Shown here piece by piece: positions 4,855-57,140 of a stretch of 64,000 nucleotides of DNA (position 1 is its first letter; the number at the start of each line of letters is the position of its first letter). The notes under the pieces are model-generated. The model ran no database searches, was not told where the DNA came from, and saw only the letters and a program-made list of their open reading frames with translations. Source of the DNA: a virus; the IMG/VR virus record IMGVR_UViG_3300043436_002834, positions 1 to 64,000 of that record; one strand, given 5' to 3'. The position numbers were made by a program, and so were the translations under genes.

Positions 4855-5010
4855 AAATGACTGTAAGAGCACGTTGTTCTTTGCTTCTCTTTGATATTCA
4901 CCGCGGTTAGTCAGACCGGATAGAGCGTTTCCCTATCAGAAGTTCCATGTAGGTAATCAGCCTACTTCTCATCATATTGGACATACTATTCAGTGATGAA
5001 CTGAAACGTG

Positions 5011-5095
5011 TAACCCTAGTCAGATTCGAACTGACACTAGCCCTGGCATACACCATATTAAATTAGGACCGTGTTACCAATTACACCATAGGGTT
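5011..5095 (-). tRNA. tRNA-like gene with 20-nt anticodon loop (isotype undetermined)
   Basis: AACCCTA/TAGGGTT acceptor, GTGT-AATTGGTA-ACAC D arm, GTCCT/AGGGC anticodon stem, GTCAG-TTCGAAT-CTGAC T arm; no encoded CCA. Confidence 0.75.
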
Positions 5096-13194: not shown

Positions 13195-13230
13195 AAAGCC
13201 TTGTTAAATTTTAGCAGGGCTTTTTTGTTT
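13195..13230 (+). terminator. Rho-independent terminator
   Basis: aaagccttgtta/tagcagggcttt stem plus T-tract. Confidence 0.7.
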
Positions 13231-13255
13231 TTTAAAGATATTTTTTGTATATTAT
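13224..13255 (+). promoter_or_regulatory. Late promoter TTTG-N20-TATATTAT
   Basis: Same bipartite motif at 14349, 18638, 23389, 40940, 49981. Confidence 0.7.
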
Positions 13256-13279
13256 ACTATACACTTAATAATACTAGAC

Positions 13280-14322: not shown

Positions 14323-14352
14323 AAAGTCCTAAGCAGTTAGGACTTTTTTTTG
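14323..14352 (+). terminator. Rho-independent terminator
   Basis: aaagtcctaa/ttaggacttt stem plus T-tract. Confidence 0.8.
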
Positions 14353-14408
14353 CTTTTTAAATATATTTTTTGTATATTATAGGATATTGTTTATTAAACA
14401 CACACACC

Positions 14409-18632: not shown

Positions 18633-18708
18633 ACACATTTGCTTGAGTAAATTATTTTTTGTATATTATAGTTAGCTGTGTATCCGCAGTAAAAAAAAAT
18701 TTAGAAAT

Positions 18709-23369: not shown

Positions 23370-23433
23370 ATTATCTTTTAAAGATAATTTTGCTTCTTAT
23401 ATATTTTTTTTGTATATTATAGATATAAGATCT

Positions 23434-25745: not shown

Positions 25746-26210
25746 ATGCAATTAAGTAAAAACCTATCACTTGCAGAAGTAACAAGAAGTGAAACTGCTA
25801 AACGTAGAGGAGTAAGCAACATGCCAACAGAAGCGCATATTGCAAACTTTAAATTATTAGCTGAGAAAGTGTTTCAGCCAATCCGTGAACACTTTGGTGT
25901 TCCAATTCATATTTCATCTGGATACCGCTCTGCAGCGTTAAATAAGGCTATTGGCGGAGCAGCCTCCAGTCAACATTGCACAGGAGAAGCGATTGATATT
26001 GATATGGATGGTACATCAATTACCAATGCGCAAATCTTTAACTACATTAAAGATAATTTAGAGTTTGATCAACTTATTTGGGAGTTTGGTACAGACAAAA
26101 ATCCTGATTGGGTACATGTATCTTATGAGTCAACTGGTAAACAACGCAAGCAAATGCTTAAAGCTGTTAAAACATCAACAGGTACAAAATACTTAGTTTA
26201 CAATGGCTAG
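25746..26210 (+). CDS. Endolysin, peptidase M15 family
   Basis: SSGYRS..LN..IGG...SQH..GEAID...WVHVSY. Confidence 0.9.
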   Translation: MQLSKNLSLAEVTRSETAKRRGVSNMPTEAHIANFKLLAEKVFQPIREHFGVPIHISSGYRSAALNKAIGGAASSQHCTGEAIDIDMDGTSITNAQIFNYIKDNLEFDQLIWEFGTDKNPDWVHVSYESTGKQRKQMLKAVKTSTGTKYLVYNG

Positions 26211-26552: not shown

Positions 26553-26613
26553 ATTTAAACATTTATTAGTTAAACATTTATTATTATATTTGACACAATA
26601 AATATTTAAAATT

Positions 26614-26862
26614 ATGTCAGAACAAACCAACCAAGAAACAGACAGAGAATACACTGAAGCTGAGTTAAATGCAATGCGTGAAAAAACCATCAAGTATTAT
26701 GCTCAGCAAAAAAAAGTATTGACTAGTCAATGTGAAGTAGAAGAATTAAAAGCAAGAATTAAGAAAGCACAATTTGAAGCATTTGATTATACAGTTCGCA
26801 TGATGCAGATCAATCAAGCTATAAAAGAAGCAGAAGATGAAGTAGAACAAAAATCTGAATAA
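26614..26862 (+). CDS. Small coiled-coil protein
   Basis: 82-aa ORF behind TATATTTG promoter. Confidence 0.65.
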   Translation: MSEQTNQETDREYTEAELNAMREKTIKYYAQQKKVLTSQCEVEELKARIKKAQFEAFDYTVRMMQINQAIKEAEDEVEQKSE

Positions 26863-28981: not shown

Positions 28982-29483
28982 GTTATTTGACATACAGGGA
29001 GGTAAGGTTGTTCCTACAGAACATTGCCATACACTACCCTTTTTAAAAAGAATCATGAACGAGTATGAGGATAACCACTTGGCTATCTTGGCATACCTGT
29101 TTTACATGTCTTGCCGCAGTTCTGAGAACCCTTATTTTAATAGACCGCAAGATGAAGTAGAGGAAGAGATTCTACGGGATCTAGAAGCAAACTTTGATCC
29201 GGAAGACAGATATATCAGAATGGCTCTGGACCGATGTAAAGATATGTATGAAACACCTACCGTTAGAGCATATAATGGTATTGCAAACATGTTAGAGAAA
29301 TTAGCATTGTATATGGAGACGCAAACAATTACTGATGGTAGAGATGGTAACATTACTGCTATTGTAAGTGCTGCCAAAAACTTTGATGCAATTAGAAAAT
29401 CATTTAAAGGTGTTGCTAAAGATCTTGAAGAAGAACAATCATCAAGAGCAAGAGGTGGACAAAAACTAAGCTACGATGATTAG
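28971..29483 (+). CDS. Conserved protein upstream of TerL (candidate small terminase)
   Basis: Synteny; C-terminal RARGG. Confidence 0.55.
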   Translation: MAIKLFDIQGGKVVPTEHCHTLPFLKRIMNEYEDNHLAILAYLFYMSCRSSENPYFNRPQDEVEEEILRDLEANFDPEDRYIRMALDRCKDMYETPTVRAYNGIANMLEKLALYMETQTITDGRDGNITAIVSAAKNFDAIRKSFKGVAKDLEEEQSSRARGGQKLSYDD

Positions 29484-31701
29484 AGATGACTTGGGAGAGG
29501 TTTATGAAGATATTCCTCTCTGGCATAATGGTGTATGGACTACGCATAATTTTTCTAGCCGTGAAGAAATGGCAGATGAATTAGAAACTAATTATTTCAA
29601 AGAACCTGGAGAATACCAATTTGATGAAATAATCAAAGAGTTTCAAAGAGAAGGTATCAAGTTTAAAAAACATGGTTACTTCTGTGATGCTCCTGATGGC
29701 ACCAAAGATTTTATTGATTATTGGAATCATGAAAAACTAAAATCTAGAAAAGGTGTATTATTTTGGAAAGATGACCGCAAGTTTTATTTACCAAGAGACT
29801 ACTATTTTTGGATTAACTTTTTACCTATTATTGATAAGATCAAAAGAAAAACTGATTTACCTGATATTCATGATGCACAGTATCACATGTCATTATATGA
29901 ATGGATTGGTGAGTTAAAATATAGGCATGGGGTTGTACTCAAAAAGCGCCAGTTTGGATCTTCTTTTTACCATGCAGCCAAGCTTATAAATATTCTTTGG
30001 TTTGAATATTCACCTGTACTTAAAATTGGTTCTTCTCTTAGCGCTTATGTTACAGGGGTAAATGGTACTTGGAAAATGTTACAAGAATATCGCATTTTTT
30101 TAAATACTCATACAGCTTGGTATAGACCAATGAACCCAGGAGGAGTTGGAGAATGGCAACAGAAAATTGAATATGTAGAAGGTGGGAGAAAGACTGAAAA
30201 AGGTAGAAAAGGAGTATTGCAAGCCTTATCTTTTGAACAATCAGATACTGCCGGTGTAGGGGGTTTATGTACCTTATTCTTTTATGAAGAAGCAGGTATT
30301 GCTAAAAGTATGGATAAAACATATGAGTTCATGCTTCCTGCATTACAAGCCGGTGAAATTACAACTGGTTATTTTATTGCTTCAGGAACCGTAGGTGATT
30401 TGAAACAATGTGAGCCATTGCGTAAATACATGTATAAAGCCCAAGGTAACGGATTTTATGAAGTACCCAACAAATGGGCTGATGCAAAAGGAACAGTTCT
30501 TAATACAGGTTTGTTTATTCCTGAACAGTGGTCAATGCCTCCATATATTGATGAGTTTGGTAATTCAAAAGTAGATGAGGCTTTAGAAGCGCTAGTTGAA
30601 TTAAAGAAACAGTGGAAGAAAGATTTGGATCCGGAAACATATCAAATTAGATGTTCTCAGCGACCAACAAATATGGAAGAAGCCTTTGCCTTTAGAGGTG
30701 AAAGCATTTTCCCATTAGAACTTGTAAAATCACATAAGCGGGATATTGAAGAAGGAGATTATCCATACCGATGCATTAACCTTGCTTATGATAACAAGGG
30801 TGACATTATTGCTAGTCCAACAACCAAGAAACCAATTCTAACCTTTCCTATAGAAAAGAATGCCGAAGATAAATCAGGTGCTATTCAAGTATGGGAGGAA
30901 CCAGATGAAGAAAAGGAATTTTGCACAACTTACTATGCTTCTGTTGACCCCGTGTCTGAAGGTAAAACAGTAACTTCAGACTCATTATGTTCTATCCATG
31001 TTTATAAGAATCCAGTTCATATACAAAGAGTAATGACCAATGGAGAAGTAGAAACATTTATAGAAGGAGATAAAATTGTATGTGCTTGGACAGGGCGATA
31101 TGATGATATCAATAAAACTCATGAAAGATTAGAACTAATTATTGAATGGTATCAGGCTTGGACTGTAGTAGAGAACAACGTGCCTTTATTTATTCAGTAC
31201 ATGCAGTTTAAAAGAAAACAAAAGTATTTGGTACCATCATCTCAAATTGTATTTTCAAAAGAGATACAAATGTCCAAAACACAATTTCAGCAATATGGTT
31301 GGCGAAATGTTTCTACAATATTTAAAACTGTAATGCTCAGTTATTTAATTGAGTACCTTAGAGAAGAATTAGATGTAGAAACTGATGACTCTGGAAAGAT
31401 ATATAAAAAGCATTATGGTATATCTAGAATACCGGATTACATGTCTATGGTTGAGATGGAACACTATCAGCCTGGAGTCAACGTGGATAGATTAATTTCA
31501 TTAGCAGCCTTAATTACTTTTGTAAAAATACAGGAAGCAAGTAGAGGATTAAAGAAAAGAGTTGAGTATGATAATGAAGAACATTTGGAAAAGTCAGAAA
31601 ATTTGTATAAATTAAATAAGAGTCTCTTTAGGCATATTGGATCAAGCAGTGAATCTTTATCAATGAAGAAGCCGCGCAATCCATTTAAAAATATTAGATA
31701 A
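29476..31701 (+). CDS. terL: Terminase large subunit
   Basis: LKKRQFGSSF Walker A, FYEEAG Walker B, ASVDP and NVDR nuclease motifs, crAss-type. Confidence 0.93.
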   Translation: MIRDDLGEVYEDIPLWHNGVWTTHNFSSREEMADELETNYFKEPGEYQFDEIIKEFQREGIKFKKHGYFCDAPDGTKDFIDYWNHEKLKSRKGVLFWKDDRKFYLPRDYYFWINFLPIIDKIKRKTDLPDIHDAQYHMSLYEWIGELKYRHGVVLKKRQFGSSFYHAAKLINILWFEYSPVLKIGSSLSAYVTGVNGTWKMLQEYRIFLNTHTAWYRPMNPGGVGEWQQKIEYVEGGRKTEKGRKGVLQALSFEQSDTAGVGGLCTLFFYEEAGIAKSMDKTYEFMLPALQAGEITTGYFIASGTVGDLKQCEPLRKYMYKAQGNGFYEVPNKWADAKGTVLNTGLFIPEQWSMPPYIDEFGNSKVDEALEALVELKKQWKKDLDPETYQIRCSQRPTNMEEAFAFRGESIFPLELVKSHKRDIEEGDYPYRCINLAYDNKGDIIASPTTKKPILTFPIEKNAEDKSGAIQVWEEPDEEKEFCTTYYASVDPVSEGKTVTSDSLCSIHVYKNPVHIQRVMTNGEVETFIEGDKIVCAWTGRYDDINKTHERLELIIEWYQAWTVVENNVPLFIQYMQFKRKQKYLVPSSQIVFSKEIQMSKTQFQQYGWRNVSTIFKTVMLSYLIEYLREELDVETDDSGKIYKKHYGISRIPDYMSMVEMEHYQPGVNVDRLISLAALITFVKIQEASRGLKKRVEYDNEEHLEKSENLYKLNKSLFRHIGSSSESLSMKKPRNPFKNIR

Positions 31702-34436
31702 TGGAAATTTTAAATGCAATAGATTTAAAAAAGGGTAAAAGAACCAAAAAAAATAGATTTGGTGTTTTTACTCAACCAATTCAATTTGTTCCTTCTGATG
31801 AAAAAGATGATGAGTGGTCAAAGTGGAATATAGATTGGCTAGAATGGCAAGGGATTAAACAAATTCAAGCTAAGGCAAGACGCATAATGAAGAATTATAA
31901 ACTTGCTAAAGGAACAATTGATAAGACAGATTACCTGCCAGATGTTGAGAATGAAATGACTGAAATGGTTGAGGTTTTAACCGAAGGTCAAAATGAAGCT
32001 TTGGAATTAAAGTTCTATCCTATTATTCCAAATGTTATTAACACAATGGTTTCTGAATTTGCTAAAAGAAATACTAAGATTGACTACCGTGCAATTGATG
32101 AGTATTCTTACAATGAGATCATGGAAAAAAAGACTGAGGAAATAAGCAAAGTGCTTGTTGAATATGCTCAGCAAAAGTTAGTAGCTAAGATGGTAGAAAT
32201 GGGAATGGATCCTAATTCTGAAGAAGCTCAACAACAACTTGATCCAGAAGCATTAAAAAAATTACCAGAGATTGAAGATTTCTATTCTAAGAAATATCAA
32301 ACTATGGCTGAAAGATGGGCAGTTAAACAACATGCAATTGATGTTAACCGCTTTAGAATGGATGAAATGGAAGAACTTGCTTTCAGAGATTCATTAATTA
32401 CTGATAGTGAGTTTTGGCATTTTAAAATGCTTGAAGATGATTATAACATTGAGTTATTAAATCCAGCATTATCATTTTATCATAAATCTCCTAATGTTCA
32501 TTATATTTCACAAGGTAACTGGGCAGGATGGATAGACATGCTTACTATTTCAGATGTAGTAGATAAGTATGGCTACTTGATGACTGCAGAACAGTTAGAA
32601 ACATTAGAATTATTACATCCGGCTAGATCAGCAAGATATATGATTGATGGTATTCCTAATGATGGATCACTATACAACTCAGATGATTCTTATGAATCTA
32701 ATCGTAGATCAGGTGTTGATATGCGCAGGCATCTCTCTTTCCTAGAGAATGCTCATGACCCCCATGATGTTGTATCTTATATTGTTGGACAGAGTGAACA
32801 TGCAGGTAACTTACACACTGTGGAATTACTGCGTGTTTCTACTGTATATTGGAAGACACAACGCAGAGTTGGCCAATTGACTAAGATTGATGAAGATGGA
32901 GCAGTTATTACTGAGATAGTAGATGAAAACTATGTGGTAACTACTAAACCTATTTACAACAAAGTATTTCAGAAAAAAGAAGCTGCTGATAATTTAATCT
33001 TTGGCGATCACATAGATTGGTTTTGGATTAATCAAGTATGGGGTGGTGTAAAAATTGGAAATAACAGAACAATCTTTAATACTGAAACTGATACTGACTT
33101 TGATCCAATCTATGTTGGTATTGACAGACAGAAACCAGGACCGCTTAAATTCCAATTCCGTGGTGATAAAACTATGTATGGTGCCAAACTACCAATTGAA
33201 GGAAAAGTATTCTCTGATAGAAATACTAAATCAACTTCTTTGGTGGATTTAATGAAACCTGCACAAATTGGATATAACATCTGTAATAATCAAATTGCAG
33301 ATATTCTTGTTGATGAATTAGGTTCTGTAATTGTATTAGATCAAAATGCAATTCCTAAACATTCAATGGGTGAAGATTGGGGTAAAAACAATTTGGCTAA
33401 AGCATATGTAGCAATGAAAGACTTTTCAATGTTACCTTTAGATCCAAGTATTGCCAATACTGAAAATGCTACTAACTTTCAGCATTATCAAGTATTAAAC
33501 CTTGAGCAATCAAACCGATTGATGTCTAGAATTCAATTGGCTAATTACTTTAAACAGCAAGCCATGGAAGTTGTGGGATTAAATCCACAACGAATGGGTC
33601 AGCAATTGGGTCAAACAAATACAGCTACTGGTGTAGAACAAGCAGTATCTGGTTCTTATGCACAAACAGAAACTTATTTTATTCAACACAGTGATCATTT
33701 AATGCCTCGTGTGCATCAAATGCGTACTGACTTAGCCCAATACTACCATTCTAATAAATCATCTGTTAGATTGCAAGGAATGATCTCTCCAGATGAGAGA
33801 ACAAACTTTGAAATTAATGGAACAGATTTATTGCTTGTAGATTTAAATGTATTTTGCCAAACAAATGCAACTAATAGAAATATGCTTGAACAACTTAAAC
33901 AAGTGTTCATGAGTAATAATACTACAGGTGCATCAATCTATGACTTAGGTAAAGCAATACAAGCTGACTCAATTGGATCACTTAATGGTATTCTTAAAGA
34001 CATTGAGCAAAAAACTGAAGAGAGACGCAAAGAAGAAATGCAGCATCAAGAACAAATGCAGCAAGAGGAAATCAAAGCTAAACAAGCAGAAAAACAAATG
34101 GTGTTTGACCATGAATCTCGCGAGAAAGAAAAAGACCGCAGATCTAGATTGCTTGAAGCTGAGATTAAAGCTGCCGGTTATGGTGCTATGCAGGATGTTA
34201 ACAAAAATGAGCAATCCGATTTCCAAGATGTTCTCAAAGATGTTAAGCAGTCTGAGCAATATGCTGAAACCATGAACTTTAACAGAGAAAAAGAGTCTGC
34301 AAAAAACAACTTGCATCAACAGAAACTTGACTTAGAGAAACAAAAATTGATGAATGAGTCTCAAAATAAGCAAATTGAGTTTGCTATTGCTAGAGAAAAC
34401 AAGAACCGTTTTGATCAGAAAAAACCTAATAAGTAG
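31701..34436 (+). CDS. Portal protein
   Basis: FYPIIPNVIN...EF, SLVDLMKPAQI.YN, QRMGQ...TATG; follows TerL. Confidence 0.9.
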   Translation: MEILNAIDLKKGKRTKKNRFGVFTQPIQFVPSDEKDDEWSKWNIDWLEWQGIKQIQAKARRIMKNYKLAKGTIDKTDYLPDVENEMTEMVEVLTEGQNEALELKFYPIIPNVINTMVSEFAKRNTKIDYRAIDEYSYNEIMEKKTEEISKVLVEYAQQKLVAKMVEMGMDPNSEEAQQQLDPEALKKLPEIEDFYSKKYQTMAERWAVKQHAIDVNRFRMDEMEELAFRDSLITDSEFWHFKMLEDDYNIELLNPALSFYHKSPNVHYISQGNWAGWIDMLTISDVVDKYGYLMTAEQLETLELLHPARSARYMIDGIPNDGSLYNSDDSYESNRRSGVDMRRHLSFLENAHDPHDVVSYIVGQSEHAGNLHTVELLRVSTVYWKTQRRVGQLTKIDEDGAVITEIVDENYVVTTKPIYNKVFQKKEAADNLIFGDHIDWFWINQVWGGVKIGNNRTIFNTETDTDFDPIYVGIDRQKPGPLKFQFRGDKTMYGAKLPIEGKVFSDRNTKSTSLVDLMKPAQIGYNICNNQIADILVDELGSVIVLDQNAIPKHSMGEDWGKNNLAKAYVAMKDFSMLPLDPSIANTENATNFQHYQVLNLEQSNRLMSRIQLANYFKQQAMEVVGLNPQRMGQQLGQTNTATGVEQAVSGSYAQTETYFIQHSDHLMPRVHQMRTDLAQYYHSNKSSVRLQGMISPDERTNFEINGTDLLLVDLNVFCQTNATNRNMLEQLKQVFMSNNTTGASIYDLGKAIQADSIGSLNGILKDIEQKTEERRKEEMQHQEQMQQEEIKAKQAEKQMVFDHESREKEKDRRSRLLEAEIKAAGYGAMQDVNKNEQSDFQDVLKDVKQSEQYAETMNFNREKESAKNNLHQQKLDLEKQKLMNESQNKQIEFAIARENKNRFDQKKPNK

Positions 34437-34565
34437 AAAATTTATCAATTATAACTATAGTATTGCAAAAACTTTTTTGTGCACCAAAAATAGTTAAACA
34501 TATATTATTTACAATTGAATAAATTTGCTTATATTATATCATAGTCAGTAATTAAACCAACAAAA

Positions 34566-35846
34566 ATGACAGAAGAAGAAAAAGCAGCTCAAGCAGCTGC
34601 ACAAGTCTCTAGCGCAGCGGTGCAAGAGATTGAGTTTGACAACATTGATGATTTGTTAGGAATCCCTTCCGCAAGTTCTGTTATAGCTCCTGCGGATACT
34701 AAACCATCAGTATTGAAATCAAACAAAGTTGACATATCGTTCTTAGATGAGATTAGTGATGATGATACTGAATCTATTCAAGACCCTGATGTAGCAAAAG
34801 CTGTAGTATCTTCAATTGTTGATGCGCCACTTTTAAATACAGATGAAGAAGAAGATGATGATCAAGCGCAAGTCAACAAAGGAGGAAGACCTAAATTAGT
34901 TAAAGATGCAATGGTGGAAGCCGCAACTAGACTAATTGATAAAGGAATTCTACAACCTTTTGATGATGGAAAAGCATTAGCTGATTATACAGTTGATGAT
35001 TTTGAAGAACTCATTCAGGCAAACATTGACTCACAAACAAGTGAAGTTGCACAAAATGCACCAGTTCAGTTGTTTCAACAGTTACCTGAAGAAGTTCAAG
35101 CGGTTGTTCATTATGCTTTAAATGGAGGTCAAGATATTAAATCGGTATTTAATCAATTGGCTAAAGCACAAGAAACCTTTGACTTAGATGTAAAAAAGGA
35201 AGAAGATCAAGAAGTAATTGCTAGACAATACTTAAATCTTACCGGATTTGGATCTGTAGAAGAAATTGAGGATGAGATTAATGTTCTTAAAGATAGAGGG
35301 GACTTAGCTAAATATGCTGAAAGATACAAACCGAAGTTAGATTCACGCCAGGCTGAAGTAATTGAAAAAAGATTACAAGATCAGCAAAGTGCACAGGCGC
35401 GCAAGGTTGAGATGGAAAAGAAATACCATGATGTTGTTTATTCAACATTAAATGCTAAAAACTTAAATGGTATTCCATTAAATAATAAAGTTCAAACAAT
35501 GCTTTATTATGGCTTAACAGATGCAACTAAGTATCAAGACTCAAAAGGAAATCCTACAAATGCATTAGGATATCTACTTGAGCAACATCAATTTGGTCCA
35601 AAAGCTAATCCATCTTTAGTTGCTGAAGCACTTTGGTTGTTAGCTGATCCGGTTGAATACCGCAATTCAGTAAAACAATTAGGTGCAAACACAGCTAATG
35701 CAAATACTGTTCGCCAATTAAGAACTGAAGAAGCTTCAAGAAATGCTTCATCAACTGGAATTGGAGAGCAGGCATCAAATGCTGGAAGAGTTACTGCTAA
35801 AAGAGAGCCCGTTAAAAGGCAAGGCAGATCACTTTTTTCCAGATAA
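34566..35846 (+). CDS. Acidic scaffold-like capsid assembly protein
   Basis: Acidic N-terminus, between portal and MCP. Confidence 0.65.
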   Translation: MTEEEKAAQAAAQVSSAAVQEIEFDNIDDLLGIPSASSVIAPADTKPSVLKSNKVDISFLDEISDDDTESIQDPDVAKAVVSSIVDAPLLNTDEEEDDDQAQVNKGGRPKLVKDAMVEAATRLIDKGILQPFDDGKALADYTVDDFEELIQANIDSQTSEVAQNAPVQLFQQLPEEVQAVVHYALNGGQDIKSVFNQLAKAQETFDLDVKKEEDQEVIARQYLNLTGFGSVEEIEDEINVLKDRGDLAKYAERYKPKLDSRQAEVIEKRLQDQQSAQARKVEMEKKYHDVVYSTLNAKNLNGIPLNNKVQTMLYYGLTDATKYQDSKGNPTNALGYLLEQHQFGPKANPSLVAEALWLLADPVEYRNSVKQLGANTANANTVRQLRTEEASRNASSTGIGEQASNAGRVTAKREPVKRQGRSLFSR

Positions 35847-35878: not shown

Positions 35879-37495
35879 ATGAGTACACCAGTTCTAAATA
35901 ATGGTATGTTCCTCCGGGACAACTATTACACAGCAAGCTCTCATGTGGATTCTTACCACTTGATGAATTTGATGAAGGATGCACAACCAGATGACTTAGG
36001 TCCAATTGAACTTTGGGCGCAAGTTAAAAAGTTGGAAATGCCTTTGTATCAAATGTCATCTTTCAATGGTAAGAATGTTATTGAGGTAAACCACCCTCGT
36101 GGTGAATACAAGTGGTCAACACCTGTATCAGAAGAACTTCCTTTCATCATGGAAGATCTTGATCCATCAAATACAGCAAAAGGTATTGATGGTACACCGT
36201 TCAAAATCAAATTGAACAAGCGCGTATTTGGACATGGTGATATCATCACTTATGACAAATTCAATGGTAAAGAACTTTACATTACTGACGAGGATATCCT
36301 TGACATGGGTGATGGCTTTATCTATACTGTTCAGATGCCAAACAATGATTCATCTGCAACATTTGACAACCGTTTCTTGACTAACAACACTTATTTCTTC
36401 CGTGTAGGTTCTGCACGCGGTGAATATGGTGAGCGTTACTCTGATATCTCTATGACTCACACAAGCCGTGAGTTCTACAACTATGTTGGTAATGCTGATG
36501 CTCACGTTCACTACACAATCTCTTCTAAAGTTAAATTGATGGAGAAAGGTGGTATGCAAGCTGATGGTTCTGTACCAGTTGTTGAGATTTGGAAAAACTT
36601 TGATACAACCATGGATCCATCTATCAATACTTTAGAAGGTATGGTTGCAGCAAAAGGTCAAGGTTATGTGAAAAAAGCAATGGACAATGGTAACCTTGTT
36701 CGCTCTTTCATCACTAAACTTGAAGCAGCTCACCTTTCTAAAATTGCTTATGACATTGAAACTTACCTTATGTGGGGTAAAGGTGGTCGCATTAAGCAAG
36801 ATGGTCCAGATGATCTTCGTTTGTCAGTTGGTTTGTGGAAACAATTAGACTTGTCTTACAAGCATGTTTACAACAAATCTGACTTCCGTCTTGATATCTT
36901 CCGCTCTGAGATTTTCAACTTCTACAATGGTAAAGTTGACTTCCAAGGTCCAGATCCAAAACGTGAGTTGATTGTTCAAACCGGTATGGGTGGTATGCGC
37001 ATGATCAATGAGGCAATTAAGCGTGAAGCATTTGCATCAGGTCTTGTATTGAATGCTAAAGAATTGGATGCTGTTAAAGGTTCAGGAATGGACTTGTCTT
37101 ATGGCTTCTCTTTCACAAGCTACACTATTCCATTCTTGGCTAATGTGAAGTTTGTATTGAACCCAGCATTTGATAACCTTCAAAACAATGAGATTGAAAA
37201 CCCAATCATTGATGGTTTCCGTTTGTCTTCTTACTCATTTATCATCTTTGATATTACTGAGAACGGTCAAGACAATATCAAATTGTTGAAGTGTGCTTGG
37301 AACAAAGACCTTGTATGGCGCTATGTAAATGGTACTATGGACTATATGGGTCGTACACAAGGTTTTGCATCTTCAGGTAACTTTAATGGATACCAAATCT
37401 ACATGACTCAGGCAATGCCTGCAATCAAAGTAGAAGATCCAACTAAAGTGTTGAAAATTGTGATGCGTAACCCAATCACAGGAGGATCACTATAA
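35879..37495 (+). CDS. Major capsid protein
   Basis: crAss-type position and size; strong codon bias; followed by terminator. Confidence 0.88.
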   Translation: MSTPVLNNGMFLRDNYYTASSHVDSYHLMNLMKDAQPDDLGPIELWAQVKKLEMPLYQMSSFNGKNVIEVNHPRGEYKWSTPVSEELPFIMEDLDPSNTAKGIDGTPFKIKLNKRVFGHGDIITYDKFNGKELYITDEDILDMGDGFIYTVQMPNNDSSATFDNRFLTNNTYFFRVGSARGEYGERYSDISMTHTSREFYNYVGNADAHVHYTISSKVKLMEKGGMQADGSVPVVEIWKNFDTTMDPSINTLEGMVAAKGQGYVKKAMDNGNLVRSFITKLEAAHLSKIAYDIETYLMWGKGGRIKQDGPDDLRLSVGLWKQLDLSYKHVYNKSDFRLDIFRSEIFNFYNGKVDFQGPDPKRELIVQTGMGGMRMINEAIKREAFASGLVLNAKELDAVKGSGMDLSYGFSFTSYTIPFLANVKFVLNPAFDNLQNNEIENPIIDGFRLSSYSFIIFDITENGQDNIKLLKCAWNKDLVWRYVNGTMDYMGRTQGFASSGNFNGYQIYMTQAMPAIKVEDPTKVLKIVMRNPITGGSL

Positions 37496-37867: not shown

Positions 37868-37903
37868 ATTATATTTGTCAGTCATAAAATAAACCAACAA
37901 AAA

Positions 37904-38896
37904 ATGAGTACAAAATTTGAAACAATCGGTAAGGTTACAGTCAAACCTTACACTGATCCTAATCAGGAAAACATGGGACTAGAAAAGTATAATTATGTGG
38001 TATTTCCAAATACTTTTCAAGTAGAAAGTTTAGCTGCTGTAGAACAAAATGGTAAGACCCGCTATTTAACTGGCCTTAATGAGTTTGCTCCAGAAGTTAA
38101 ACAAATTAAAGACCCAGAAAAAAGAAAAGCGGTTATTAAAGATATCCGTGAAACTGTAGCTACTTTAGAAAGAGAAAGAGCATTTAATCATTTAGATCCT
38201 GAAGACAAAGAGTTTTGGTCTAAAGTAGAAATGTTTAAGCCAGACAATTCAGAAATTTGGGGCAAGGTTAGTATTAAGTTAGGCAACGATGATGTTGTCC
38301 TTGATCCTAAAGAAAATCTTGATCACCTTATCTTAGTTAAAGCAATTGAAAACGGAGGATTTTCATTAGTGGCTTCTAACTTTGAAGAGGCAAAAAGAAC
38401 TAAAGCTAAATGGTACCTAGATAGACAAATTGATTCTGTTGCTTCTAGTGTTAGCATTACTAAGCTTAAAAATAAAGCAGGAGCTATTTTGGAAGAGTTA
38501 TCAGAAGAGCAACCAAGAAAACTATTCTACATTGCTAAAAACATTGATGGAAATAGTCCACAATACTCAAACAAAACTATGCCTGGTATTATCTATAGTA
38601 ATTTAGATAAATACATCAATGGTAAAGCATATGACAATAACTTAAAGCGTTGTGCTACTACATTTATTGAGCATGCAGAAATGAGTGTTGAGGATCTTAA
38701 AATTAAAGCAATTATTAAAGATGCTAGTTTCTATAAGTATATCATTGTTAAGTCTGATGGTATGCTTTATGAGCAAACACAAAATGTAATGCTTGGTAGA
38801 AATGTTTCTGATGTTTTAGAGTATTTAAAGAATCCAACCAATGAAGATATGTTAGATCTTTTAATGGCTAAGGTTGAAGATATTTGGAGTAAATAA
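37904..38896 (+). CDS. Conserved crAss-like protein downstream of MCP
   Basis: FW.....LDP...; LG....V.EYLKNP.N C-terminal motif. Confidence 0.7.
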   Translation: MSTKFETIGKVTVKPYTDPNQENMGLEKYNYVVFPNTFQVESLAAVEQNGKTRYLTGLNEFAPEVKQIKDPEKRKAVIKDIRETVATLERERAFNHLDPEDKEFWSKVEMFKPDNSEIWGKVSIKLGNDDVVLDPKENLDHLILVKAIENGGFSLVASNFEEAKRTKAKWYLDRQIDSVASSVSITKLKNKAGAILEELSEEQPRKLFYIAKNIDGNSPQYSNKTMPGIIYSNLDKYINGKAYDNNLKRCATTFIEHAEMSVEDLKIKAIIKDASFYKYIIVKSDGMLYEQTQNVMLGRNVSDVLEYLKNPTNEDMLDLLMAKVEDIWSK

Positions 38897-47665: not shown

Positions 47666-49384
47666 ATGAGCGGATTTAAAATTTTTGATGGTACAAACTG
47701 GGTTGATCCTTGTAATTGCAATATTAGCATCTTAGATGTTGATGGTGTAACTTATAAGTTAATTAATCCGCATAACTGTATTGTTAGTTATTTTGACGGA
47801 ACTAATTGGTGTCCGATAACTTGCCCTTGTGAATGTCCTTCTGGATATACATTTAATGCAAGCACCAATTCATGTGAAGCTGTAGAAATAAGTCCTGCAA
47901 CACCATCAGGCGGAACAACTGCTCCTGTAGTTGCAGGTAATACAAATACAGGTTATTCTGAATTTGGAGCCAGGCTTTATGAAAACATTACAGGTTCTGT
48001 ATATCCTCTTAATGGTTGGCAAAATACAACAATTTGCACTACCTGTTCTACAGGTTACCAAGTTCTTGAAAACGCAGGTACTGGATCTGCATTAGCCATT
48101 CAGCAACTTTCTGCAGTAGATAGCGATATCTTTAATTCACAAGGAACTACAACTTTAGGAAGACTTAATAATACAGGTCTGTGGGCTACAGGATTTCCTA
48201 ATAATCAATGGTTAAATGTAGAATTTTGCATAAACATTGCAGAAACTAAAACATATATATTTGCATTAGCTGGCGATAACCAAGTTAAAGCTGATATTAC
48301 ATCAACTACTTTTAATGGAGGTGGAACATTTAACTTAGTAAATTTATGGGCATCAGACAGTCCAACAGGATTGCCTGCAAGTATAACAACTATGCCACAT
48401 AAGTTATGGCACATGTTTCCTATTACATTGCCTGCGGGATCTCATACATTAAAATTATCAGGATATAACTTTGCTGCAGATAAAGCATTTGGTGCAGAAA
48501 TATATGATATTTCTGAATTAGACATGACTGGTTTGATGACATCATCTACAGCAACAGTTGGTGATCTACAACCTTATATTTTATTTTCAACAGAAAGTTT
48601 AATTACAAGTCCTCCTTTGCTTATTCCGATGCCGGGACAAACAATTACATGGTCTTGTCCTTCAGGTAGCACATACAGTCTTTGTTATGGTGCACCATCT
48701 TGCATTACGGTTGATTCTATTCCATGTGGTAATCAACAACCTTTAACTATCAATACCGAAGTTAATATTTGGTTTGATAATTCAGGATCAATGAATACTA
48801 CAAGATTGGGTCTTGAATTAATGCAAGCACAAGAACTTAAAACTGCGTTGCTTCCTATTTTTAATTATGATGAAACCTTGTACAATAAAAGAGTAAAACT
48901 CTTTGATATGAATGGTTCATCATGGAATTATAATCAGAGATTTATTAAATGTTTGGCAGAAGAAAGAAATTTTCAAAGAACTCCAGACACAGATGTAAAT
49001 CAAGTAATCAATCTTGTTTTTACAGATAGATCCGTTATCTATGGTTATGGTTCTACTGAAGAATTTGATAACACTGCTAGAGAAGAGCAATATGACTTAG
49101 ATGTAGATGATTTAAGAAATGTTATGGCTACTGCAGGTTATGATATTAAAGGAACCGTGTTTAGAATAAATAGTGATCAAAATAGTTATGTTGGGTTTAG
49201 AACATTAGTTCAATCTACTTTTGTAAACAATCAAGCATATACTAAACCTTATAATTTAAATGATTTTTATTCATTAAACTTTAACTGTAATTTAGATACT
49301 ATGGCTGCAGATAAATCATCCTATTATAAGGATCAGGTTGTTGCTGCATTAAGAGCTTTAGATATTGTTGTGCCAGTTGTATAA
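47666..49384 (+). CDS. Putative adhesin with EGF-like Cys motifs and C-terminal vWA-like domain
   Basis: CECPSGY...SC; FDNSGSM (DxSxS MIDAS-like); likely ATG 47666. Confidence 0.6.
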   Translation: MSGFKIFDGTNWVDPCNCNISILDVDGVTYKLINPHNCIVSYFDGTNWCPITCPCECPSGYTFNASTNSCEAVEISPATPSGGTTAPVVAGNTNTGYSEFGARLYENITGSVYPLNGWQNTTICTTCSTGYQVLENAGTGSALAIQQLSAVDSDIFNSQGTTTLGRLNNTGLWATGFPNNQWLNVEFCINIAETKTYIFALAGDNQVKADITSTTFNGGGTFNLVNLWASDSPTGLPASITTMPHKLWHMFPITLPAGSHTLKLSGYNFAADKAFGAEIYDISELDMTGLMTSSTATVGDLQPYILFSTESLITSPPLLIPMPGQTITWSCPSGSTYSLCYGAPSCITVDSIPCGNQQPLTINTEVNIWFDNSGSMNTTRLGLELMQAQELKTALLPIFNYDETLYNKRVKLFDMNGSSWNYNQRFIKCLAEERNFQRTPDTDVNQVINLVFTDRSVIYGYGSTEEFDNTAREEQYDLDVDDLRNVMATAGYDIKGTVFRINSDQNSYVGFRTLVQSTFVNNQAYTKPYNLNDFYSLNFNCNLDTMAADKSSYYKDQVVAALRALDIVVPVV

Positions 49385-49394
49385 AAAATAAGAT

Positions 49395-49895
49395 ATGAGT
49401 TGTAGTTGTAAAGGCGCATGTGAATGCAGTAGTCATGAAGTTAAACTAAGAGGTCCTCGTGGATTTAAAGGAGACAAAGGGGAACCTGGTGTAGCCGGTC
49501 CTCAAGGAATTCAAGGTCTTGTAGGTCCCGTTGGACCCCAAGGACCTGTTGGTCCTCAAGGGCCTTCAGGAATGACAACTAACCAACTTGCTGTAAAAAT
49601 TACACATGTTGGCGGACAACTGAAAGCTAATGTATATGGAGGAATTGGTACCGTTACTTATGCATGGGAAATGGCTGATGTATTGGTAATGAATAATGCA
49701 TATCATTACTTTCAGTTTAATACTCCAATAAATATACAAACAGTTGGCGTTTCTTTAACTAACTTTACACCTGCGTTTAATGGTTGTAATGCAACTAACA
49801 ATGCGCAAATAGGAATGGCCAAGGTAACAGTAACAGATGCAACCGGCAGAAAAGCTATTGATACATTCTTACTTTTGAATGTGAATTGTGCTTAA
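49395..49895 (+). CDS. Cys-rich collagen fibre protein
   Basis: [11 protein letters not shown]...LRGPRG.KGDKG shared with 47167 ORF. Confidence 0.75.
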
Positions 49896-49907
49896 TGCGA
49901 AAAAAAT

Positions 49908-49970
49908 GTCACAGAAGGTTGGTTTATGTGGCTGACTAGGATGAACCCCGGATAATACCGGGGTTTGTTT
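49908..49970 (+). ncRNA. Candidate 3'-UTR sRNA (hairpin plus terminator)
   Basis: gtcaca/tgtggc hairpin exposing GGTTGGTTT, then aaccccgg/ccggggtt terminator; complementary to several late 5' ends. Confidence 0.45.
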
Positions 49971-50012
49971 TATCAATTAATTTGTATTTTTGATTTATAA
50001 TTAGTATATTAT

Positions 50013-50504
50013 ATGAAGGTTGATTTAAATAAACCAAGGGTTACAGAGAAAAAAGGAAAAGTAATTAACTACAAGGAAGTTAGAGATTTTAACAAGCTGT
50101 ATCCTGAACATAATTTAAAGCAATCAGATATTATTAAAATCATGCGTGCATTTAATACTAATCTGGCTGATGAAACAATGAACAATATTTATGGAGTTGT
50201 ACTTCCAGAAAATATTGGAGCCATATTTATTAATAATGCAGGCAAAGCAAAAGGTAAATCAATTGACTATGCCAAATCAAAAGCGGCAGAAAAAATTGTT
50301 TACCATAAAAATTGGCATACGGATAACAATTTGATGAGGATTGTTTATATAAATAGAACAAGAAGGACATTAGTAAAAAATGCCAGCTTGTTTACATTTA
50401 ACCCTCTTCAGCAATTTAAAAGAAGAGCCAGCGCATATTTTAAAAAACATTGGTCTAGATGTTTAACCACAACATATAAACCAACAGTTGACATAAAACT
50501 ATAA
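50013..50504 (+). CDS. IHF-like basic DNA-binding protein
   Basis: GVVLPENIGAIFI...IDY.KSK...VYH.N.HTD; crAss synteny before tail genes. Confidence 0.6.
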   Translation: MKVDLNKPRVTEKKGKVINYKEVRDFNKLYPEHNLKQSDIIKIMRAFNTNLADETMNNIYGVVLPENIGAIFINNAGKAKGKSIDYAKSKAAEKIVYHKNWHTDNNLMRIVYINRTRRTLVKNASLFTFNPLQQFKRRASAYFKKHWSRCLTTTYKPTVDIKL

Positions 50505-50506
50505 AA

Positions 50507-51178
50507 ATGGTTACAATTAGAGAAAGTATTTCTAGAATAAGAAATGTATTCAAATTAGTTAATGAAGATGCTTTTTTAACCGATAGGTTCATTTATAGTC
50601 TTTTAATCAAACATGCTAAAACATTAATCAGAAGACAAGATGTAGAAAACAAGTTGATGCAATATGACAGTTTGTTTGAAACATTACCTTTTGTTGAACT
50701 GATTGAAGTAGATAAAATTGAAGCTGACTGCGCTAGAATTAAAACTGGCTGCAAGATAATGCGAACTAAAAAAAAGCTTCCTAAACTAATGACAGGCAGC
50801 AATGGACCAATTCTAAGAACAGTTGCTCCTATAGATGGAAGTGATGTATTCCAACAATGTTTAGCTGCCGTATATGTAGCTATGTCTCAATCTACAAATT
50901 TTAAATACAATAAGTGTCATTACTTCTGGTATAAAAACGGGTATTTGTATTTTCCAGATATTGTATGGGATGCAGTATCGGTAGAAGGAATGTTTGAAGA
51001 ACCTGTAGATGATTTTTGTAATGAGAATGATTCTGAATGCACATTAGCTCAAGATAGAGATTTAACAATTCCTGATTATCTATTTACTGAAATTGAACAA
51101 TTAACTCAACAAGAGTTAATGACATTAGGTAAAATTCCATCTGATACTGGAGATAATTCACAAAACATATTGAGATAA
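50507..51178 (+). CDS. Tail ring/tubular protein
   Basis: RTKKKLP...YFWYKNGYLYF...EGMFE.P; crAss synteny. Confidence 0.7.
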   Translation: MVTIRESISRIRNVFKLVNEDAFLTDRFIYSLLIKHAKTLIRRQDVENKLMQYDSLFETLPFVELIEVDKIEADCARIKTGCKIMRTKKKLPKLMTGSNGPILRTVAPIDGSDVFQQCLAAVYVAMSQSTNFKYNKCHYFWYKNGYLYFPDIVWDAVSVEGMFEEPVDDFCNENDSECTLAQDRDLTIPDYLFTEIEQLTQQELMTLGKIPSDTGDNSQNILR

Positions 51179-57079: not shown

Positions 57080-57140
57080 ACATTTAATAGTTAAGATAAA
57101 TAAATTTTTTTTTGTATATTACAAGTATAACCAATATAAA

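Follow-up and report, generated by a model that had tools for sequence, protein, structure and literature searches.

A conserved hairpin in the 3' untranslated region of a tail-fibre-like gene of uncultured crAss-like phages: a candidate anti-leader RNA of late genes

The window analysed here comprises the first 64 kb of the 84,842-bp IMG/VR record IMGVR_UViG_3300043436_002834, a virus genome with a crAss-like gene order. Terminase (29476-31701) and portal (31701-34436) genes are followed by a gene of 426 amino acids (aa), the major capsid protein (MCP) gene (35879-37495) and tail-fibre-like genes, beyond which lie a gene for a ring or virion protein (50507-51178) and then those for large virion proteins. 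The subject of this report is a short plus-strand element (49908-49970) in the 3' untranslated region (3' UTR) of a collagen-repeat tail-fibre-like gene (49395-49895, plus strand), the latter recognized by PHROG tail-fibre matches and by Pfam Collagen. The element consists of a hairpin, a linker and a terminator hairpin, and the loop of the first hairpin is complementary to leaders of late genes of the same phage. We think it probable, with some reserve, that it acts as a 3'-UTR-borne antisense 'anti-leader' RNA, which pairs in trans with those leaders.

The phage belongs to an uncultured environmental group. Neither megablast nor blastn found a near relative among GenBank phages, the sole match being 68 nucleotides (nt) long, in cr60_1, and tblastn of the capsid protein gave a best identity of 26.7% and no cultured relative. 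The sequence is held by 20 DNA sequencing runs, nearly all labelled as lake water or freshwater metagenome. Judging from the promoter style, the host phylum is probably Bacteroidota.

The first hairpin (hairpin 1) reads GUCACA-[GAAGGUUGGUUUA]-UGUGGC (49908-49932, plus strand). Its stem of 6 bp, including one U.G pair, is formed by GUCACA (49908-49913) and UGUGGC (49927-49932) and closes a 13-nt loop (49914-49926), both by reading the letters and in the minimum free energy (MFE) fold. The loop carries the seed GGUUGGUUU (49917-49925), which is the complement of leaders of the type AAACCAAC(C) and whose core, GUUGGU(U), is kept in 53 of 53 element-bearing records. The segment GGTTGGTTTATGTGGCTGACTA (49917-49938), to which a first-pass annotation of this stretch had drawn attention together with its gtcaca/tgtggc hairpin, is exact in letters and coordinates; it runs through the hairpin and linker ahead of the terminator hairpin, and the stop codon upstream is TAA at 49893-49895. 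The linker between the two hairpins is UGACUAGGAUGAA, and the tail box CUGACUA (49932-49938), complementary to (UA)GUCAG, is mostly single-stranded between them.

The terminator hairpin with its U tract (49937-49972, plus strand) has the core CCCCGG (49946-49951)/CCGGGG (49958-49963), and 3' of this G+C hairpin stands TTTGTTTT (hairpin and tail together span 49946-49970), the U-rich tail being also given as UUUGUUUU. RNAfold predicted hairpin 1 and the long terminator hairpin with an energy of -26.7 kcal/mol (z -3.63), a stability reached by one of 200 shuffled sequences. For the putative terminator, the RNAfold hairpin, the U tract and stems that covary in relatives speak in favour, but a simple terminator scanner flagged nothing within 49300-50300; a probable reason is that pairing with the A-rich linker occupies the U tract. 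A conserved promoter region, …AATTTGTATTTTTGA…TAGTATATTAT (49973-50012, plus strand), follows directly and reaches the ATG at 50013. No match at the gathering threshold was obtained with 4,227 Rfam models over the whole window.

Two other readings of these letters were discarded. A micro-ORF (open reading frame) from the ATG at 49906 to the TGA at 49935 (9 codons) has its frame shifted by 1-nt indels among relatives and lacks the ATG in one of them. A minus-strand transcript would have no promoter-like box ahead of it, and its stem would be interrupted by A.C mismatches.

The bipartite motif GTCAG-N3-9-AAACCAAC was found four times on the two strands of the window, whereas 100 dinucleotide-shuffled versions contained it 0.02 times on average (maximum 1; none reached 4), and the remaining 20.8 kb of the record contain no further copy. 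AAACCAAC alone has nine matches in the window versus 3.29 expected, a number that none of the 100 shuffles reached. The minus-strand match of the bipartite motif is the element itself, while the three plus-strand matches (26616, 34544 and 37877) open three consecutive late transcription units. They correspond to the three full sites that had been placed at gene starts by the first-pass annotation, and all of them were confirmed. Site T1, ATGUCAGAACAAACCAACC (26614-26632, plus strand), lies over the start codon of an 82-aa ORF (26614-26862), the first gene of the operon leading to terminase and portal. T2 (34542-34561, plus strand) is located in the leader of the 426-aa gene preceding the capsid gene and ends 4 nt before the ATG at 34566. 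T3, GUCAG-ucauaaaa-UAAACCAAC (37877-37898, plus strand), belongs to the leader of a 330-aa gene following the capsid gene (37904-38896) and ends 5 nt before its ATG. The promoter motifs proposed upstream of these sites were also recovered, as promoter-like boxes of putative function: TATATTTG (26585-26592), TATATTAT (34530-34537) and TATATTTG (37870-37877), respectively.

Conservation of the element was followed in several independently collected sets of relatives. Neighbours of the ring protein (62-89% aa identity), fetched without use of the motif, contain it at the same place in 13 of 13 loci, with compensatory differences in the terminator stems. Among loci found by protein profile (41-52% identity) it is present in 12 of 13, where the stem takes other forms: one locus has GCUACA/UGUAGC, i.e. 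two compensatory pairs versus GUCACA/UGUGAC, nine have GUCGCAG/CUGUGGC with the loop UUUGUUGGUUU and with CUAAC replacing CUGAC, and in one the unrelated stem AUCCGG/CCUGGAU encloses UGUUGGUUC. Of 41 contigs from relatives identified by the capsid protein (approximately 70% identity), 18 proved to contain the complete hairpin-plus-terminator element when searched with a covariance model of hairpin 1, with the stems GUUACAG/CUGUGAC, GUUGCAG/CUGUAAC and GUCAUAG/CUGUGAC. Among the 35 matches listed in this search 22 were inspected, the others scoring 12-17 bits; one of the matches (G005) coincides with an element found by synteny, and the model also matches, weakly, leaders on the opposite strand (four inspected matches, in L233-L235 and L244). 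Synteny added two more elements, with the stems GUUGAAG/CUUaCAAC and AGUCUGG/CUGGACU. Overall, the element was found in 53 IMG/VR phage records in at least eight stem versions. A strict DNA pattern had retrieved 21 IMG/VR contigs, in which conservation of the boxes is circular and was excluded as evidence. The pattern TTGGTT proved unspecific, its matches being equal to the control, and its composition is palindromic. An apparent absence of the element from five distant contigs, which gave no match to GGTTGGTT, was overturned by the covariance model, which found it there with the loop UUUGUUGGUUU.

In the model-fitted alignment (A4; 34 distinct rows, after a backwards leader in L244 and a partial match, L217:2652, were dropped) all 199 of 199 stem cells are paired, 32 of them as G.U, and variation is seen at four of the six pairs, whereas sliding the partner column lowered pairing to 20-51%. 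Since the 32 G.U cells would be A.C on the other strand, a plus-strand RNA is favoured. The loop remains invariant at 50-70% divergence of the capsid protein, while the letters of linker and terminator vary freely. The element is therefore a plus-strand RNA-type structure with a loop under strong selection.

These data bear on two explanations in which RNA pairing plays no part. In the first, the resemblance between element and leaders is due to chance, or else the conservation merely reflects recombination boundaries that flank exchangeable tail-fibre modules. The C-terminus of the upstream gene is indeed unrelated in many relatives (L002-L013 were compared), while the block of hairpin, terminator and promoter stays, which marks this block as a boundary of fibre-module exchange, and single 8-mer matches are to be expected, with about three occurrences of AAACCAAC per window. 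Nevertheless, we consider this explanation very improbable, as it does not account for the excess of the bipartite motif, for the invariance of the loop amid changing flanking letters or for the compensatory nature of the stem changes, and the conserved block is not identical over its whole length.

The second explanation was the alternative offered by the first-pass annotation, a protein-binding site used in both orientations; in the form considered here, a phage regulator would recognize a double-stranded DNA site, which has one orientation at the late promoters and the opposite one where it lies behind the fibre gene and ahead of the following promoter. All four sites are the same DNA sequence near promoter-like boxes, and the GTCAG of T3 abuts a -7-like box. 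However, the two boxes are separated by spacers of 2 to 16 nt, which differ even between orthologous sites and leave no fixed half-site geometry, and a covarying stem with G.U pairs would be meaningless for duplex DNA. Moreover, distant relatives keep the loop alone, on unrelated stems, and the core is also present within coding starts, at +10. A DNA site thus appears improbable, if somewhat less so than mere chance.

The leader motif is conserved as well. In 80 MCP-relative loci AACCAAC stands 2-5 nt before the ATG of the pre-capsid gene in nearly all cases, and in nearly all of them it is also found before the post-capsid gene, often in tandem. In 13 whole contigs 62 sense-strand sites of AAACCAAC were counted, 36 of them within -40 to +30 of called plus-strand gene starts, with peaks at -11 to -13 and at +10; such start-proximal windows make up 3-7% of the sequence. 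A search made with no prior assumption on genes, for Watson-Crick complements of at least 9 nt to the contig's own loop in 22 whole contigs, gave 167 sites, of which 73 are near starts, in contrast to 75 sites and 13 near starts for a backwards-loop control in the same contigs. In T1 orthologues AACCAAC lies at +10 to +14 and is read in two reading frames. The core occurs in differing frames in early coding regions generally (encoding T-N, N-Q or E-P-T), which indicates selection on the nucleotides.

In some relatives a gene on the opposite strand (G015 at 83416, G009 at 25840, also G016) starts with ATGTCAGAA(G/C)(T/A)AAACCAAC…, a MSEVNQQKNMMIV-like sequence with both boxes. Judging from this sequence, a gene not belonging to the late block may also be among the putative targets. 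In G015 and G016 a third GTCAG site, considered as a T1 orthologue, belongs to a different gene on the other strand and was excluded from T1.

The loop matches its leaders well. Contiguous Watson-Crick matches of 8-12 nt between loop and cognate leaders were found in 33 of 33 pairs tested. When the duplex energy of loop plus tail was computed for the -40 to +20 regions of 62 plus-strand starts, the proposed targets ranked first to third (T2 -23.2, T1 -20.5, T3 -19.4; next -17.1). Shuffled loop/tail queries reached the best value in 15 of 300 runs and the third-best in 7 of 300. A caveat is that the seed is wholly unpaired in the MFE fold of only 24 of 42 elements, compared with 96 of 840 flank-shuffled controls.

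The pairing that had been proposed was a two-part one, and here only the loop-leader half is family-wide, while the GUCAG/CUGAC half is confined to one clade. Where the tail of the element has CUGAC (11 of 22 contigs), 23 of 38 leaders carry GUCAG no more than 30 nt ahead of the core, whereas elements with CUAAC or CAACA (the other 11 of 22) go with GUCAG in none of 47. A similar relation exists at the edge of the core: where the loop has G 5' of GUUGGU, the core is followed by C in 9 of 38 leaders, and where it has U, in 0 of 47, nearly all of which have A. It is hard to ascribe to accident that three leaders of one clade share a 5-mer complementary to the tail. On sequence grounds, the RNA covaries with its target weakly. 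GUUAG, the partner predicted for leaders of the CUAAC clade, was not found there, and these leaders contain neither GUCAG nor GUUAG.

A number of observations weigh against an anti-leader function. The longest match is on average 9.06 nt for cognate and 8.81 nt for non-cognate pairs, a difference that is not significant (3,939 of 20,000 permutations were as high). The covariation between RNA and targets in relatives, which had been proposed as a check, is seen as a clade-level co-change, but not in this test. Pair-by-pair covariation between RNA and target is lacking because the core is invariant on both sides, and the clade-level correlations rest on about one phylogenetic split, so that the Fisher values overstate their independence. 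Within the G-type clade most T2 and T3 leaders have A opposite the loop G. In a whole-genome RNAduplex search with the full 41 nt the targets are not separated from the background: T2 is on top with -30.8, unrelated sites reach -30.1, and T3 is the 11th among the 15 distinct plus-strand sites listed, all at or below -26.5. The MFE fold of the window places three weak pairs inside the loop.

The sites themselves raise further difficulties. The GTCAG of T3 overlaps the end of the putative -7 box TATATTTG and, on the expected promoter geometry, may lie upstream of the transcription start and hence outside the RNA. The partial site CATATAAACCAAC (50473-50485), noted in the first-pass annotation ahead of the tail ring gene, is present, 29 nt before that gene and inside the coding end of a 163-aa gene, but it is conserved in 0 of 26 related loci and, on this comparison, is probably fortuitous. 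One relative, G001 (L034, L286; 87% complete), offers a natural contrast, having no hairpin at the syntenic place. In its capsid-operon leader AAAACCAAACAAAT replaces AAACCAAC, with ACCAAAC and without the exact AACCAAC. That the hairpin and the exact leader are missing together speaks for pairing, but a slightly altered leader does persist there. The primary role of the leader is therefore probably independent of the element, e.g. that of a translation enhancer in a non-Shine-Dalgarno host. Finally, a run search returned no RNA sequencing runs holding the sequence. As to the trans-acting small RNA (sRNA) postulated by the first-pass annotation, what stands is a structured, conserved plus-strand element whose loop is complementary to leaders in 53 records. 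It does not have its own promoter: the distance from the stop codon of the variable upstream gene to the hairpin is 5-15 nt, which leaves no room for one and makes it a 3'-UTR element, so a discrete sRNA would need processing.

Some of these points favour a different job for the hairpin. It could be the site of an RNA-binding protein of phage or host, or a hairpin that stabilises the mRNA or assists termination, with the G/U-rich loop and the A/C-rich leader being complementary but never pairing. A conserved structure and loop do not by themselves show pairing in trans, the element is always found directly before a terminator, the cognate test was not significant, and G001 has an altered leader with no element. 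On the other hand, in 22 of 22 contigs a stretch of 8-11 nt of the loop is an exact match to the sole conserved leader motif, for which accident is very unlikely, and the second pair of complementary boxes is restricted to one clade, in which the element has CUGAC and three separate leaders have GUCAG. We regard this explanation as unlikely, though it deserves to be taken seriously.

The tail of the element calls for another consideration. RNAalifold favours a helix between the seed and the element's own tail (GUUGGUU/GGCUGAC, within 49914-49945), and an alternative of this kind is adopted in 4 of 42 single predictions, which also speaks against a seed free to pair in trans. Partial complementarity of tail to seed is kept in three clades with differing letters (CUGAC, CUAAC, CAAC), and according to the fold models this helix could be self-masking, a switch fold or part of a termination-linked role. 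Pairing might then be real but work in reverse or in cis: abundant leader RNAs, or the element's own tail, would switch the folds of the nascent 3' UTR and tune termination or read-through into the ring and tail genes. The position of the element, immediately upstream of the terminator and of the promoter of the next operon, suits such a role. However, the alternative helix is invariant or wobble-rich, with compensatory change not seen, and the downstream genes have a conserved promoter of their own, which seems to make control by read-through less needed. In our view this possibility is rather unlikely, more so than a hairpin with another job.

Based on these observations, we suggest the following course for pairing in trans as an anti-leader RNA; accumulation of the RNA, its pairing and the effect of the pairing are predictions from sequence. 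The region 49896-49972 would be the 3' untranslated end of the tail-fibre transcript, in which hairpin 1 would present GGUUGGUUU in its loop, followed by single-stranded CUGACUA and the intrinsic terminator. The loop would pair in trans with the A/C-rich leader AAACCAAC(A/C) of the genes that head the late packaging and capsid operons and those following, a leader located 3-5 nt upstream of the start codon or about 10 nt downstream of it. In the clade of this phage, the tail box would additionally pair with a GUCAG situated at the leader's 5' end or close to it. The active form may be either a processed fragment or part of the whole mRNA. In T2 and T3 the paired region would extend from -13 to -4, and in T1 from +2 to +19. 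Such positions fall inside the region occupied by the 30S subunit, so repressed initiation would be the simplest outcome. Translation initiation of head-assembly genes would then fall as tail-fibre transcripts accumulate. The effect may also have the opposite sign, with mRNA 5' ends being stabilised, i.e. protected via the GUCAG box.

Parts of this scheme have precedents. In bacteria, trans-acting sRNAs derived from 3' UTRs are well known, e.g. CpxQ, DapZ and SroC. The element resembles them in its position at the 3' end of a coding transcript, in the use of the predicted intrinsic terminator of that transcript, and in having a short conserved seed that would be directed to several translation-initiation regions. 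It differs from them in that a lytic-type phage encodes it and that its predicted targets are late operons of the phage itself. Hfq is not known to operate in Bacteroidota.

Among phages, c4 of P1 and P7 is a trans-acting antisense RNA in which two fold-presented regions pair with two boxes of a leader and mask the ribosome-binding region. This RNA is cut out of its own target operon, and its role lies in the immunity/antirepressor switch. The element shares with c4 a phage origin and two short complementary boxes. However, a c4-type arrangement, in which the RNA is processed from the operon of its target and both carry two complementary boxes, was not found: the element's putative targets are morphogenesis genes of three other operons, 12-23 kb upstream, and its second box is present in the CUGAC clade only. 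In Listeria the 3' UTR of hly pairs with the 5' UTR of prsA2, a single pair that acts by stabilisation. As in that case, one mRNA would use its 3' UTR to pair with the leader of a second, which would couple the expression of the two and make a dedicated sRNA gene unnecessary, but a single phage 3' UTR would here address a leader common to three to six operons.

Further parallels come from recent phage studies. The sRNAs of jumbo phages (201phi2-1 sRNA005/phiKZ) were seen by transcriptomics, are derived from 5' UTRs and, in the sections of the report considered here, have no known target (PMC11512511). They are similar to the element in the conservation of position and fold beside tail genes and in the proposed control of morphogenesis; unlike them, the element was recognized in genome data and has a clear predicted target set (PMC11512511). 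CisR is a 3'-UTR-derived sRNA which, according to the part of the source used here, acts on the cep mRNA of CTXphi (PMC13250501). It likewise controls the mRNA of a phage structural gene, but CTXphi is filamentous and CisR is encoded by the host, whereas both partners would here be encoded by the phage (PMC13250501). For phi14:2 and its relatives, Drobysheva et al. reported middle and late promoters of the host RNA polymerase (bioRxiv 10.1101/2020.03.07.982082), and the passages of that preprint considered here describe no antisense RNA. Our literature search found no description of an element of this kind in crAss-like phages. It may, on sequence evidence, be assigned to a new RNA family of a known kind, the 3'-UTR-borne base-pairing RNAs.

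Several other features of the record deserve mention. The promoters of T1 and T2 are preceded by a shared upstream box, TAGTTAAACAT(A/T)T (26560-26580 and 34494-34512), which is conserved in L021-L025; late promoters may thus have three parts, of which this box would be the distal one. A second type of promoter, TTTTTTGTATATTATA with a T-rich upstream run, was noticed at 13224-13265, 14350-14395, 18640-18690, 23390-23430, 57100-57135 and 49985-50012. Plus-strand genes behind promoters of this type have no AAACCAAC leader, and the one at 50013 reaches the ATG directly, so that this gene looks leaderless. Positions 74600-84842 of the record contain short ORFs only, on either strand (table 11), with gaps of 0.3-1.7 kb between called genes; this could reflect genes for non-coding RNAs, the use of a different genetic code or a large number of very small genes. 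ARAGORN reported a tRNA-like gene at 5010-5095 on the minus strand ('tRNA-???', anticodon undetermined).

Post-transcriptional control in crAss-like phages and in Bacteroidota-type hosts is almost unexplored, and how start codons are chosen in such hosts without Shine-Dalgarno pairing is still being worked out. What is defined here is a leader by which the first genes of late operons are marked throughout a wide phage family, namely AAACCAAC(A) at about -12, together with a structured RNA whose loop exactly complements it, i.e. a small, testable circuit. The hairpin-plus-loop signature and its covariance model can be used for annotating metagenomic phage contigs. If the pairing is not real, the leader alone would still be a candidate translation enhancer in these hosts. 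We hold it an evenly balanced proposition that an anti-leader riboregulator of this design is encoded throughout a large clade of crAss-like phages, uncultured and environmental: a hairpin in the tail-fibre 3' UTR would, through its invariant loop, pair with packaging, scaffold/capsid and neighbouring late leaders and so couple translation of head genes to transcription of the tail fibre, in hosts that probably use neither Shine-Dalgarno pairing nor Hfq. If true, no riboregulator would have been described before it in crAss-like phages, and it would be one of the rare instances in which a single trans-acting RNA allows a lytic phage to control its own morphogenesis regulon; provided that the pairing is real, it would mean that a lytic phage balances the production of heads and tails by RNA.

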